DNA of 48,438 bases from an uncultured bacterium (GCA_903864905.1 CAIPHR010000073.1:1-48438); one strand, 5' to 3'; positions 41,240-44,384 are shown, counted from the stretch's first letter. Numbers and translations: made by a program. The notes: generated by a model from the letters alone, not told the origin.

Positions 41240-43456
41240 ATGATTATGATAAAAGAAGATTACCGCCCTCTGGCTGTATTGTACGGCTATCGGAGTAAGA
41301 AAAACACGCTTAGTTTTGTGGGTCGTAAAGGGCTAATAACGCTAAGTGGTAAAAGCGCTACTATCCAAAAGATTTTGCGCCTATGCAACGGATTCAACAG
41401 TTTAGCGGATATAACTCGCAAACTACGGATGGTCAGTCCGGAAGAAGTGAGCGAATTCCTGTCTCTTTTTGAACAACAAGGGATTGTTTGCGATAGTCGG
41501 GATCTTCATCTAAAGTTCCACGAAGATTCGGCCAATCCGGCGAAATTTTCGCGAGACCTAGGTGTCGACGGTGTTTCGGATATGCTCCAATCTGAACGGC
41601 TACGGAAGCGTGAGGGTCAGACAATTGAAATGCCTAGCCCAATTGAGAGTAGTGTTCTGGATACAATTCAGGATCGCAAGTCCACACGAGCTTTTCAATC
41701 CGGGCAGATTCCAATAGCACAACTATCTGGAATGCTTGAGGCCACATACAGTATCGGGAAAAATAAACACTGGAGCGTGGCATCCGGTGGCGGAATGTAT
41801 CCGCTTGATCTGTACATGATCATTCCAGACGACAAACAACAGGTGCCTATGGGCATACATCGATGGAATCCCGAAGAAAGAAGTTTGATCACGATATCGG
41901 GTAATAATCCAAGCGTATGGTTGTCCAAAATCTTCAACGCTAAAACACTTTTGGAAAATGTGGCATGTATCCTATGCATTGCGGCAAATTTCAAACGTTC
42001 AACGATGAAGTACGCGAACCTTGGATATCGCTTGACCTTGCTTGAGGCTGGACACGCCGCACAAAACACTTACTTATTTTGCGCTGAGCAGGGTATTGGA
42101 ATTGTCGAGTGCTGTGGGTTTGCTGACGAAGCGTTGGCGGACAAACTTGGACTATCATTTCCAGATGAGGCAGTTTTAGCAACACTCATTATGGGAAAGA
42201 TCAGTACCGATGTGCAGACCTCAATACCTGATCAGGAGATTTCGGAAAAAGCAGAGCGGTTACGCCACATCCTTGTTGGAGACAGTAAACCAATAAAGGA
42301 CGTGTTGTTTCTGGATCTTAAAGTCGATGGATACGCTATGCCGATGTGGTCGGCTGTGGCCACATATCGTCCTGTTCCTGGTTGTCTCACGGCGTCGATG
42401 AAAAGGAAAAGTGTTGGGTTCGCGACTGGTTCTACTTCTAGCGAGGCACTTCTCAAAGTCCTGGCGGAGGGTTTCGAGCGGTATGCACTTGAGCAGAATC
42501 GTAGTGATCGAAAGGAAAGTGCTATCAATCTTACCGAACCATTTCTCGATCCTCGCATTTTAGTACCTTACTCGGCAGCTCAGTTCAAAAACCTGAGAGG
42601 TATTTCACGGTTTGATTATCGACGGGAAATAGACTGGGTAATTGGTTCACGTCGAGCGACTGGTGAGCGAGTCTGGGTTCCTATGGAGCTTGCGTACTAC
42701 GCTACAGAGAAAATGAAGCATGAGCTTAAGTTGTGCTATCAGGCGAGTTCAAGCGGTGTGGCGGCGCACTTCGACAAGGAGGTAGCGATTGACACAGCGC
42801 TTTATGAACTGATCGAACGGGACGCCTTCAGTGTTACATGGTATTCCAAACGTCGAGTTAATTCGATCAATCACGAGTGTTTACCAGTGAACTTGAGAGA
42901 TAGGATTTCTGAGTGGAAGCGGTTGGGTTACAACGTTTCCATACTGGATCTGACACTCGATGGTCCTCCTGTAGCACTGGCTATCATTTGGTCTCGAGAA
43001 AAGAAACCAGCAATCTGTTCTGGTGCGGCCTGCAGACCGAGTTTTGTTGATGCGACTCTGAGGGCATTCAATGAGGCTGAGTTTATGGCTATGACGTGGC
43101 ATGACCACAGATCAAAATCGAAGATGGAAATGTGCGAGATTGATAGTACGGAAAGTCACGGGATCTTCTATCTCAATCCGGGAAATATTGCATATGCCGA
43201 CTGGTTACTTGAAGCAGAAGAAAGTGATGTAATCAGGGAAGACTTCGAGGGTAATCTACAGTATCTTGATCCTGTTGTGGTGGACATTACACCCAAGAAT
43301 CATGCCTGTGGCTTGTCGGTTATGCGGGCGCTGTCGGAAAAGCTCATGCCTATCAACTTCGGTTACGGAAACGAACACCGTGGACATTCCAGGATGGACA
43401 TGTTATCGTTTAAGTGGAGTGAGAAATACCCTTCGACTCCACACTTCTTCGCTTGA
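41240..43456 (+). CDS. Fusion protein: PqqD-like RRE, SagB-type FMN dehydrogenase and YcaO cyclodehydratase
   Basis: 738 aa. N-terminus LITLSGKSATIQKILRLCNGFNSLADITRKL..PEEVSEFLSLFEQQGIV is PqqD/RRE-like. Middle DRKSTRAFQ, SGGGMYPLDLY, VPMGIHRWNP and YRLTLLEAGHAAQNTYL..GIGIVECCGF is SagB/nitroreductase-like. C-terminus GFATGSTSSEALLKVLAEGFERYA and SSSGVAAHFDKEVAIDTALYELIERDAFSVTWY is YcaO-like. Confidence 0.85.
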   Translation: MIMIKEDYRPLAVLYGYRSKKNTLSFVGRKGLITLSGKSATIQKILRLCNGFNSLADITRKLRMVSPEEVSEFLSLFEQQGIVCDSRDLHLKFHEDSANPAKFSRDLGVDGVSDMLQSERLRKREGQTIEMPSPIESSVLDTIQDRKSTRAFQSGQIPIAQLSGMLEATYSIGKNKHWSVASGGGMYPLDLYMIIPDDKQQVPMGIHRWNPEERSLITISGNNPSVWLSKIFNAKTLLENVACILCIAANFKRSTMKYANLGYRLTLLEAGHAAQNTYLFCAEQGIGIVECCGFADEALADKLGLSFPDEAVLATLIMGKISTDVQTSIPDQEISEKAERLRHILVGDSKPIKDVLFLDLKVDGYAMPMWSAVATYRPVPGCLTASMKRKSVGFATGSTSSEALLKVLAEGFERYALEQNRSDRKESAINLTEPFLDPRILVPYSAAQFKNLRGISRFDYRREIDWVIGSRRATGERVWVPMELAYYATEKMKHELKLCYQASSSGVAAHFDKEVAIDTALYELIERDAFSVTWYSKRRVNSINHECLPVNLRDRISEWKRLGYNVSILDLTLDGPPVALAIIWSREKKPAICSGAACRPSFVDATLRAFNEAEFMAMTWHDHRSKSKMEMCEIDSTESHGIFYLNPGNIAYADWLLEAEESDVIREDFEGNLQYLDPVVVDITPKNHACGLSVMRALSEKLMPINFGYGNEHRGHSRMDMLSFKWSEKYPSTPHFFA

Positions 43457-43509
43457 AGAGGTAACAAACTGAAGGGAAGTTAGTACATACGTATATGAAA
43501 ACTAGAAAA

Positions 43510-43629
43510 ATGCCGAAAGCTCCTAAGGGAGTCAAGGTGTCAGTTCGTTCCTACAGGAATGGCCCCGATCCTCGATGCAACCGAAGTGGTGGTGCATGTA
43601 GCGGTGGTGGTTCCTGCGGGCGACGTTAA
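43510..43629 (+). CDS. Candidate TOMM/LAP precursor peptide (39 aa), absent from the ORF track
   Basis: Own translation: MPKAPKGVKVSVRSYRNGPDPRCNRSGGACSGGGSCGRR*. A basic leader is followed by a Cys/Ser/Gly-rich core. It starts 54 nt after the YcaO stop and is followed by two hairpins plus a T-run. Confidence 0.65.
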   Translation: MPKAPKGVKVSVRSYRNGPDPRCNRSGGACSGGGSCGRR

Positions 43630-43654
43630 GCCGCATTTTTGCTGCGGCGAGCAC

Positions 43655-43696
43655 AATTCTCTCTGGTGTCGTAAGATGCCAAAGAGAATTTTTTTA
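43655..43696 (+). terminator. Intrinsic terminator after the precursor ORF
   Basis: AATTCTCTCTGG / CCAAAGAGAATT 12-bp stem with one mismatch, followed by T7. Preceded by a smaller GCCGCA/TGCGGC hairpin at 43630-43648. Confidence 0.7.
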
Positions 43697-43709
43697 TTCC
43701 GACAAATTA

Positions 43710-44384
43710 ATGTATAATACTGATATGTCTATTAACGTCAATGTTCTATCCGCTTCGAATGACACAAAACCTTATTCAGAGGAGTTAAGGTCAATTGCTG
43801 CAGATACTATTGCTTCGGTTGAAAAATTGTTACCCATAAAAGACGTGGACATAGTTATCTATGATAATCCAAGAGCGACTATCGATGAGATAGGCGGTAT
43901 TGGAGGTTTTACACCGAATGCAAATGTGATTTTTATCTCATTAAATCCTAGACATCCTGATTTTGAAAAAGTTGTTAAAGAAGAGCTCGTATTTACTCTA
44001 GCTCATGAATTACATCACACTATCCGTTGGCAGAAACAGGTTGAGGGTGATACTTTACTTGAGGCAATGGTCTTCGAAGGTCTTGCAGATCATTTCGCCA
44101 TTGAAGCGACTGGTAGAGGTAAGGCATCGCCGTGGTCATATGCATTAACTCCGGAACAGAAGAAAGTTCTTCTGAAGAAGGCTTCCGAAGAATGGAAACA
44201 GCCTACATACGATAACAATCTTTGGTTTTTTGGTTCAAAGCCAGATATCATTCCGCGCTGGACTGGTTATACGTTGGGATACGACCTCGTTGCCTCGTAT
44301 TTACAGAAACATCCGGAAACTAGCGCTTCGAAACTCGCTTCTGCTGACGCATCTGAGTTTGCAAACGATGGTATATACCTGTGA
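43710..44384 (+). CDS. DUF2268-like predicted Zn-metalloprotease (HExxH)
   Basis: 224 aa with FTLAHELHHTIRW and, downstream, EGLADHF and WTGYTLGYDLV, resembling the DUF2268 predicted protease family. Confidence 0.55.
   Translation: MYNTDMSINVNVLSASNDTKPYSEELRSIAADTIASVEKLLPIKDVDIVIYDNPRATIDEIGGIGGFTPNANVIFISLNPRHPDFEKVVKEELVFTLAHELHHTIRWQKQVEGDTLLEAMVFEGLADHFAIEATGRGKASPWSYALTPEQKKVLLKKASEEWKQPTYDNNLWFFGSKPDIIPRWTGYTLGYDLVASYLQKHPETSASKLASADASEFANDGIYL

Follow-up and report, generated by a model that had tools for sequence, protein, structure and literature searches.

A compact three-gene cassette, probably a minimal linear azole-peptide module, on a contig from an uncultured bacterium

The cassette and its genes

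The window analyzed here is a 48,438 bp contig from an uncultured bacterium (GCA_903864905.1, CAIPHR010000073.1:1-48438), which carries three co-directional open reading frames (ORFs) on the + strand, at 41240–43456, 43495–43629 and 43710–44384. They encode an enzyme in which a precursor peptide recognition element (RRE), a SagB-type dehydrogenase and a YcaO domain are fused, a 44-aa precursor peptide, and a predicted zinc metallopeptidase of the DUF2268 family. This three-gene unit of 3.2 kb is probably a minimal linear azole-peptide (LAP) module, akin to the thiazole/oxazole-modified microcins (TOMM), for a ribosomally made and post-translationally modified peptide (RiPP). A three-gene TOMM/LAP-type RiPP cassette had been proposed at this place in an earlier note on the same DNA, and the proposal held, as the YcaO and SagB matches were significant and a homologous small Cys-bearing ORF lay beside the enzyme gene in ∼28 loci. 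The module is LAP/TOMM-like but a variant, since it departs from canonical TOMM/LAP systems in two respects: no E1-like partner was found in the enzyme or the scanned contig ORFs, and the YcaO domain scored under the cutoff of the SagD model.

The enzyme, precursor and peptidase genes co-occurred in dozens of loci (L numbers below), chiefly from Patescibacteria. The closest relatives of the enzyme (80–88% identity) included metagenome-assembled genomes (MAGs) of Candidatus Taylorbacteria (Patescibacteria group, Parcubacteria group), so that the condition named in the earlier note, a host from the Candidate Phyla Radiation (CPR), holds. The features of the module were as follows.

41140–41245, + strand: upstream non-coding region, presumed promoter region, which travels with the module (shared nucleotide homology)
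41246–43456, + strand: gene for the RRE-SagB-YcaO fusion enzyme, 736 aa (ORF, identity to database protein P0001, Pfam and NCBIfam domains, homologues)
41246–41545, + strand: N-terminal RRE, a PqqD-like winged helix, residues 1 to ∼100 (AlphaFold2 fold and Foldseek)
41666–42199, + strand: SagB-type flavin mononucleotide (FMN) dehydrogenase domain, with Lys255-Tyr256 at 42008–42013 (PF00881, TIGR03605, invariant Lys-Tyr)
42425–43333, + strand: YcaO domain, ATP-dependent and amide-activating (PF02624, invariant motifs)
43495–43629, + strand: precursor peptide gene, 44 aa, MKTRKMPKAPKGVKVSVRSYRNGPDPRCNRSGGACSGGGSCGRR (homologous ORFs beside enzyme genes, codon differences)
43630–43698, + strand: two hairpins after the precursor stop, the second leading into a T7 tract (RNA folding, conservation)
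43711–43718, + strand: TGTATAAT, a box resembling an extended -10 element, 6 nt upstream of the peptidase ATG at 43725 (conserved geometry)
43725–44384, + strand: gene for a DUF2268 (YjaZ-like) HExxH zinc metallopeptidase, the putative leader peptidase (PF10026, motif, fold)

The enzyme ORF was open from 41240, giving 738 aa. Because the database homologues all begin at the second Met, with MI(K/E), the start is most likely at 41246 and the predicted protein 736 aa long. In this form it was 100% identical to the database protein P0001, while an exact look-up of the 738-aa reading returned no match because gene callers use the 41246 start. A database homology search yielded 65 full-length homologues, and an exhaustive HMMER search with a profile of the family gave 2,034 proteins with E values of 1e-30 or lower. 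Rank 150 in this search still had an E of 1e-125, and at least ∼120 of the best 150 cluster representatives (50% identity) were 700–750 aa long and matched end to end. The RRE-SagB-YcaO fusion is a large and uncharacterised public family that is abundant in metagenomes, its members being annotated at source as “YcaO-like family protein,” “SagB family peptide dehydrogenase” or “SagD family component.” Split forms, with RRE-SagB and YcaO encoded by adjacent or overlapping genes, were present in L023 (5983–8465), L029 (158–2640) and L033 (3778–6650). Therefore, the RRE belongs with the dehydrogenase, and the fusion unites neighboring genes and is either derived or interchangeable. One member, P0039 (1,194 aa, from a 7,946-base JGI contig), was called as the same enzyme fused to helicase domains (DEAD, SNF2, ResIII), which may be genuine or an artefact of gene calling.

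Both catalytic domains were recognized by profile searches, and their motifs were read from an alignment of 24 homologues with 29–86% identity to the window protein. The Pfam nitroreductase profile (PF00881) matched residues 143–320 with an E of 7.8e-17, and the NCBIfam SagB model (TIGR03605) scored 97.8 bits, above its cutoff of 78.4. Lys255-Tyr256 was invariant and fell exactly on Lys201-Tyr202 of McbC in a pairwise HMMER alignment; in the structure of the microcin B17 synthetase these are the catalytic residues of azoline oxidation (PMC6395948). The Pfam YcaO profile (PF02624) matched residues 396–698 with an E of 1.4e-43. Four YcaO motifs were invariant, namely K404-x3-E408-x2-E411-R412, S502-x-G504, E521-x2-E524-R525 and E610-A-E612, the acidic ones presumably forming the nucleotide/Mg site by analogy with Ec-YcaO and LynD. 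The family also shared an invariant C-terminus, P-H-F-F-A, preceded by P-S-x.

The RRE was assigned by fold comparison, because sequence searches gave no significant match. No PqqD or RRE model of Pfam or NCBIfam matched residues 1–120, and a profile of the N-terminal region gave only insignificant matches among PDB sequences (LynD, E 1.6). An AlphaFold2 model of residues 1–110, built with 22 homologues in the input, had a predicted local distance difference test (pLDDT) score of 86 and consisted of three beta-strands followed by three helices. In a Foldseek search of the PDB, its 12 best matches were all RRE-containing RiPP proteins, with template modeling (TM) scores of 0.51–0.60, and the top of the list comprised TruD (E 2.8e-4), LynD, the PbtF RRE, TigE, ThcOx and TbiB1. 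The isolated PbtF RRE gave TM scores of 0.60 (query) and 0.74 (target); the lasso-peptide B1 RRE and McbB followed a few ranks below the top 12, amid unrelated matches. The modeled N-terminus is accepted as an RRE by its fold, and would bind the leader of the precursor. The earlier note had placed a PqqD-like RRE, SagB and YcaO on a single 738-aa protein, and all three domains were found, the RRE by fold only, although 736 aa is the likelier length. The profile searches it proposed succeeded for YcaO and SagB and not, in Pfam, for PqqD.

The small ORF had been read as 39 aa, a reading rejected here as the Met from which it starts is not conserved in relatives. The peptide is 44 aa, because the start MKT[RK]K is conserved and the second Met is not. 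A search for homologues of the 44-aa peptide retrieved a single database protein, named “hypothetical protein,” and the gene is almost never called by gene finders. The precursor family was instead recovered by scanning the surroundings of the enzyme gene for ORFs in the 46 loci with matches to both the SagB and the YcaO part. A same-strand ORF of 32–75 aa was present in ∼28 of the 46, nearly always directly 3′ of the enzyme gene (upstream in Argonema). These peptides had a basic N-terminus, a strand-like motif, and a Gly/Ser-rich tail with one to many Cys. The shared leader motif was hydrophobic-x-V-x-V-x-P/S-Y, with VKVSVRSY, IKVQVKPY, VKVAVKPY, LRVEVVPY, FKVTRKPY, ITVTVRNL, LQIRVTERR and FSWTVTAQAR as examples. 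The hosts ranged from Taylorbacteria, Saccharibacteria-labeled MAGs, WWE3 and Yanofskybacteria to several proteobacterial MAGs and the cyanobacterium Argonema, and the enzymes of these widely spread loci were only 23–40% identical to that of the window. Among close relatives the codon differences were mostly synonymous, with 13 synonymous and two nonsynonymous ones between the window precursor and its homologue L083b, and the three Cys were invariant; the family evolves under purifying selection.

Several loci carried additional or divergent precursors. In L083 (10247–11015, equal to L084 2988–3756), a partial tandem duplication of the enzyme-gene 3′ end, the precursor and a DUF2268 fragment gave rise to a further peptide whose core differs, MKTRKMPKTPKGVKVSVRQYKNIRVRSDTCTGGHTCGNTGV. 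L002 had two precursors (8255–8353 and ∼9280–9435), one before and one after the DUF2268 gene. In Argonema antarcticum (L082, 7623–7841), the candidate precursor upstream of the enzyme had the leader EFVFIPY, a long (GGS)n tail and a single Cys, and no DUF2268 gene adjoined the enzyme.

A weak promoter-like site was located upstream of the enzyme gene (41217–41244). Downstream of the precursor stop, hairpins were found at 43630–43648 and 43655–43690, the latter running into the T7 tract. The folding energy of this region was −32.6 kcal/mol (z = −3.5), with none of 200 shuffled sequences equally stable, and the stem and T-tract were kept in L003 and L080, with paired changes visible by eye. A simple consensus terminator scan made no call after the precursor, whereas folding and alignment did detect a terminator, in agreement with the earlier claim that the small ORF has its own. 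The second hairpin with its T7 tract looks like an intrinsic terminator or attenuator. Beyond it, the spacing TATAAT-N6-ATG was kept in the window, L001 and L080 (TATAAC in L003), and the TGTATAAT box may serve as an internal promoter for a leaderless mRNA. From the gene order and the conserved terminator, the enzyme and precursor genes would form one transcription unit ending at the hairpin and T-tract, and the peptidase would be expressed by read-through or from the internal promoter. RiPP operons usually combine high precursor transcription with an attenuated or separately expressed peptidase, and the same is proposed for this one.

Putative leader peptidase, module boundaries and neighbors

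The peptidase ORF was open from 43710, and its homologues start with MSI (consensus MSINI), which corresponds to the ATG at 43725. The match to DUF2268 (PF10026) had an E of 2e-33, and H94-E95-x2-H98 and E118 were invariant in 25 DUF2268 homologues, confirming the earlier description of the gene as an HExxH protease-like one. The AlphaFold2 model had a pLDDT of 88, and its best Foldseek matches were mostly HExxH metallopeptidases (top E 6.9e-4), among them anthrax lethal factor, M61 aminopeptidase, LTA4 hydrolase (M1), aminopeptidase N and thermolysin-type enzymes, with TM ∼0.5 to the M61 and M1 enzymes. The HExxH motif, the downstream Glu ligand and the thermolysin-like fold are those of gluzincins (MA clan), and the corresponding activity is predicted for this protein. 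The gene lies within the DNA shared with relatives, and in 23 of the 46 loci DUF2268 adjoined the enzyme gene, located to either side of it and in either orientation.

Its role as leader peptidase is proposed from fold and adjacency, which tempers the module assignment as a whole. The protein could instead provide immunity, act in tailoring, or be a merely linked housekeeping YjaZ-like protease, and such a role would suit the half or so of the module loci without an adjoining DUF2268 gene, the promoter-like box of its own that follows the terminator, and the oxygenases known among the HExxH proteins of RiPP clusters (PMC12636437), a further point against the assignment. This alternative is unlikely, although it deserves some weight: the adjacency in 23 loci spans 23–74% identity and both sides and strands, the gene lies inside the shared 3.2-kb module, and the HExxH and Glu residues are invariant, with mostly metallopeptidases and no oxygenase among the closest folds.

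The limits of the module were given by nucleotide homology to L001, L003, L080 and L083/84 (77–85% identity), which started at 41140–41178 and ended at 44353–44366. Only 41140–44366 was shared with these relatives, and the flanks were unrelated. In the window, the flanks comprised the following features.

40315–41139, − strand: truncated histidine-kinase copy (HisKA and HATPase_c, no membrane sensor), the left direct repeat, abutting the left edge of the module (Pfam, nucleotide identity)
44431–46122, − strand: full-length seven-transmembrane (7TM) histidine kinase (HisKA_7TM-HisKA-HATPase_c), its 3′ part being the right direct repeat (Pfam)
46216–47097, + strand: S-adenosylmethionine (SAM)-dependent methyltransferase, divergent from the kinase (weak Methyltransf_20/12/25 matches)

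The kinase repeats (40278–41129 and 44398–45254) were 82.6% identical over 839 columns, so that the cassette does sit between duplicated kinase segments, as had been noted earlier. Direct repeats of neighboring DNA (120–800 nt, 78–93% identical) bracketed the module in six independent loci. L019 showed a truncated kinase 3′ fragment, the module and a kinase in that order, with repeats at 51–469 and 4687–5106 (92.6% identical over 420 nt), and its enzyme was only 25% identical to that of the window. Shorter bracketing repeats were found in L008 (4754–4889 and 7723–7858), L011 (5705–5828 and 9649–9771), L033 (1235–1367 and 7664–7796) and L080 (9660–9807 and 13853–14000). The repeat corresponded to the 3′ part of the kinase in the window and L019, and to the 5′ end of a SET-domain gene in L008. 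In kinase orthologues lacking the cassette, unrelated cargo followed by a kinase 3′ fragment was seen in L099 (7824–11211) and L096 (8001–13045), and short fragments in L092 and L094, which suggests recurrent insertion at the 3′ end of this kinase gene.

Acquisition of the cassette, as the earlier note had suggested, is supported because no DNA other than the module is shared with close relatives and the module is bracketed by the kinase duplication. Its base composition is a weak argument by itself. The cassette was more GC-rich than its surroundings, as noted before by eye (0.455; the mean of the window is 0.399, with an sd of 0.024 among segments of equal size), but the contrast is modest and the flanking kinase copies also reach 0.44–0.52. 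No integrase or transposase was found in or adjoining the module, nor a short att core. Insertion at a recombination-prone site, for instance by Campbell-type integration of a circle bearing the module and a kinase fragment, would fit these sequences, as long (120–800 nt) and diverged repeats are more compatible with homologous recombination of this kind. It appears rather improbable that the cassette was vertically inherited and that the arrangement arose through local tandem duplication of the kinase followed by deletion. The age of the kinase repeats, indicated by their identity, the lack of integrase or transposase and the modest GC difference would agree with such a history; against it stand the wholly unrelated flanks of the 77–85% identical modules, the bracketing repeats in six loci and the kinase-homologue loci fetched without the module.

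The 7TM kinase is a resident gene outside the shared module and a possible functional partner of it. Kinases of one homologous 7TM family were found near the module in eight independent loci (the window, L008, L019, L020, L023, L029, L083/84 and L085), in differing orders and orientations, and Pfam HisKA_7TM was detected in those of the window, L023, L029 and L084. At two distant loci (L008 7758–9883 and L085 5542–7805), the module adjoined an operon in which a gene with a SET domain (protein lysine methyltransferase-like) is joined by a kinase gene from this family. The adjacency could reflect functional coupling or be a by-product of the landing site. If it were functional, the product might be mainly a signal or regulator tied to the kinase (autoinducer-like or host-sensing) and not an antibiotic; besides the eight loci with kinases a few genes away, the lack of a transporter or immunity gene in the module would accord with this. 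Such a role seems doubtful on balance. The cassette was absent from all 25 metagenomic loci that a search with the window kinase retrieved (30–59% identity), many module loci have no kinase nearby, no response regulator was found in domain scans of the ORFs on this 48-kb contig, and the other cargo at the kinase 3′ end in L096 and L099 implies that the adjacency can arise by insertion. An obligatory functional tie between kinase and module was weakened by the same absence and the same cargo.

The methyltransferase at 46216–47097 was considered as a tailoring enzyme and rejected, since it lies outside the shared DNA and its pairing with the kinase is kept without the cassette (L090, L091 and L093). 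It is probably a resident partner of the kinase and no part of the RiPP module. A class I methyltransferase lay beside the enzyme in L023 as well, and the pairing of a class I SAM methyltransferase gene with a 7TM kinase gene, divergently or in an operon (44431–47097 in the window; L090, L091, L093 and L023), was conserved across Patescibacteria with or without the module. A second kinase paralogue, ∼25% identical, often occurred near this pair.

Elsewhere, the contig was rich in defense-type genes (37180–39761, 13579–19447 and 28069–28449). An N4/N6 DNA methylase and an AlwI-family restriction enzyme lay directly upstream of the kinase fragment, and a second methylase with a ResIII helicase/nuclease, an NYN-domain protein and a MazF-like toxin were also encoded. 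A giant ORF of 2,481 aa (2899–10344), with a C-terminal Peptidase_S74 (endosialidase chaperone) domain as its sole Pfam match, probably encodes a surface fiber or adhesin-like protein. The last 1.3 kb (47100–48438) was AT-rich (GC ∼0.31) and had no ORF of at least 110 aa. No RNA families other than tRNAs were found in the window.

Predicted chemistry of the module

The gene content is consistent with a short pathway. The RRE would bind the beta-strand-like leader motif K-G-V-K-V-S-V-R-S-Y of the 44-aa precursor. The YcaO domain, with ATP, would then cyclodehydrate the conserved core cysteines C28, C35 and C41, and possibly nearby Ser, to azolines, which the fused SagB-type FMN domain with Lys255-Tyr256 would oxidize to azoles. 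The DUF2268 zinc peptidase would remove the leader, and a short thiazole peptide, cationic and rich in Gly, would result.

Several observations weigh against this interpretation, in addition to those on the peptidase given above. Azole formation is a prediction, and some precursors (L009, L025 and L082) have a single core Cys. Although TOMM_cyclo_SagD (TIGR03604) was the best NCBIfam model for the YcaO domain, its score of 148.6 bits was below the cutoff of 219.25, and this YcaO is divergent in sequence. In a PDB sequence search it was about equally near the thioamide-forming YcaO of M. jannaschii (1.3e-19) and the azoline-forming MusD, TruD and LynD. A C-terminal PxPxP motif is known from azoline-forming YcaOs; the PHFFA terminus keeps Pro-His and an aromatic residue, and the second and third Pro are missing. 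No ThiF/E1-like or Ocin-ThiF domain was found in the enzyme or in the scanned contig ORFs of at least 110 aa, and the SagB-YcaO linker of ∼75 residues is too short for an E1-like domain. Some dehydrogenase-borne RRE-like domains may not engage a leader, so the function of the RRE is not guaranteed by its fold. Finally, no transporter or immunity gene lies within the module and no transporter domain adjoins it, the nearest transporter genes being of the ABC (32923–34746) and MFS (31358–32548) types. The earlier note had likewise reported neither a dedicated transporter nor a separate E1-like/Ocin-ThiF partner adjacent to the cassette, and the domain scans agree.

The YcaO domain alone would leave the chemistry unsettled, but the fused dehydrogenase with its intact Lys-Tyr pair does point to azolines that would be both made and oxidized. 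On the best reading, the RRE on the dehydrogenase would stand in for the E1-like or Ocin-ThiF partner required by canonical azoline-forming YcaOs. It is very unlikely that the YcaO installs another backbone modification (a thioamide, an amidine or an unoxidized azoline) and that the product is not an azole peptide: the score below the SagD cutoff, the equal similarity to thioamide-forming MJ1094, the non-canonical PHFFA terminus and the missing E1-like partner would suit this, but no TfuA was matched in the enzyme or the scanned contig ORFs of at least 110 aa, the YcaO is fused to or beside a SagB dehydrogenase in the family members fetched, the Lys-Tyr pair invariant in the 24 aligned homologues would be pointless without azoline substrates, and Cys is the conserved residue of the precursor core. 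The methan_mark_1 model scored 58.7 bits against the enzyme, below its cutoff of 365.

Comparison with known systems

If the predicted azole chemistry is true, one polypeptide of 736 residues would perform leader recognition, cyclodehydration and oxidation, as a very compact azole synthetase without an E1-like partner, and it would help peptide engineering and the study of YcaO activation. Secondary metabolism in the CPR is known almost wholly by inference from genomes. The module offers a concrete, testable RiPP from these ultra-small, host-dependent bacteria, with a defined precursor family and leader motif, and its bracketing repeats and unrelated flanks make a small case study of cargo movement between streamlined genomes without obvious mobility genes. 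A wider picture would join an integrase-free mobile RiPP unit, spread among Patescibacteria by Campbell-type recombination through a carried neighbor-gene fragment, most notably that of the 7TM-kinase 3′ end, with a thiazole peptide that acts with this kinase as a cell–cell or symbiont–host signal and not as a classical antibiotic, and with the smallest complete azole synthetase lacking an E1-like activator; taken together, this remains a long shot. Nothing is overturned, as LAP clusters in the CPR have already been reported and the enzyme family is plentiful in public data. In a limited literature search, no description was found of the RRE-SagB-YcaO fusion, the DUF2268 partner or the precursor family, nor any joint mention of YcaO and DUF2268; the fusion was not described in the available portions of the RRE-Finder update and the TOMM landscape paper (PMC4603692).

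The nearest precedent is from the CPR itself. The available text of Sharrar et al. (2020, mBio, PMC7298704) describes a Microgenomates LAP cluster of a YcaO gene, a nitroreductase, a peptidase and an 84-aa precursor, and then another 93 CPR genomes that contain 110 LAP clusters; in 89 of these clusters a nitroreductase gene lies beside YcaO. The earlier note had considered so small a pathway unusual in a CPR organism; given these 110 clusters, and with the fusion abundant in metagenomes, a compact azole-peptide pathway in the CPR is not unusual. As far as that text goes, the resemblance lies in the CPR hosts and in the combination of YcaO, nitroreductase/SagB, peptidase and small precursor, both sets being known from genes alone, and the split enzyme forms fit the arrangement of a nitroreductase next to YcaO plus a peptidase. 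The clusters differ from the window in their separate genes and in the 84-aa precursor of the Microgenomates genome, and neither an RRE nor a tri-domain fusion, DUF2268 family, leader motif or module mobility is described in the portions available.

The module resembles the microcin B17 system McbBCD of Escherichia coli in its Gly/Ser/Cys-rich substrate, its YcaO cyclodehydratase, its SagB-type FMN dehydrogenase with the aligned Lys-Tyr, and its RRE-like leader binding. McbBCD, however, is an octameric complex of three proteins in which the leader is held by the E1-like McbB, whereas in the window there is no E1-like protein and the RRE resides on the dehydrogenase-YcaO polypeptide. The McbBCD system also possesses its own exporter and immunity genes, with TldD/E as the protease. 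The cyanobactin enzymes LynD and TruD share the N-terminal RRE and were the best structural matches of the N-terminal domain of the window enzyme, but they are E1-like-YcaO fusions without a dehydrogenase, unlike the order RRE-SagB-YcaO without an E1-like domain. ThcOx, a SagB-type oxidase with N-terminal RRE-like domains, matches the window enzyme by fold and sequence; it occurs as a stand-alone oxidase or joined to the PatG protease, unlike the fusion described here, and cyanobactins are macrocyclized.

According to the available text of Cox et al. (2015, PMC4603692), a cyclodehydratase is defined as an E1-like C protein (or an Ocin-ThiF-like F protein partner) together with YcaO, as discrete or fused proteins, and the YcaOs of bottromycin and trifolitoxin, like that of the window without such a partner, are believed to act without a C (E1-like) protein. 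These two systems have no RRE-SagB fused or adjoining in a window-like arrangement. Bottromycin biosynthesis moreover involves a follower peptide, and an amidine is also formed. With regard to mobility, the window module differs from integrative islands that insert at the 3′ end of a gene and duplicate this end, in that neither an integrase or transposase nor a short att core was found and in its long (120–800 nt), diverged repeats. As in such islands, a full-length gene and a displaced, diverged 3′ fragment of it enclose the cargo, and other cargo occupies the same site in relatives.

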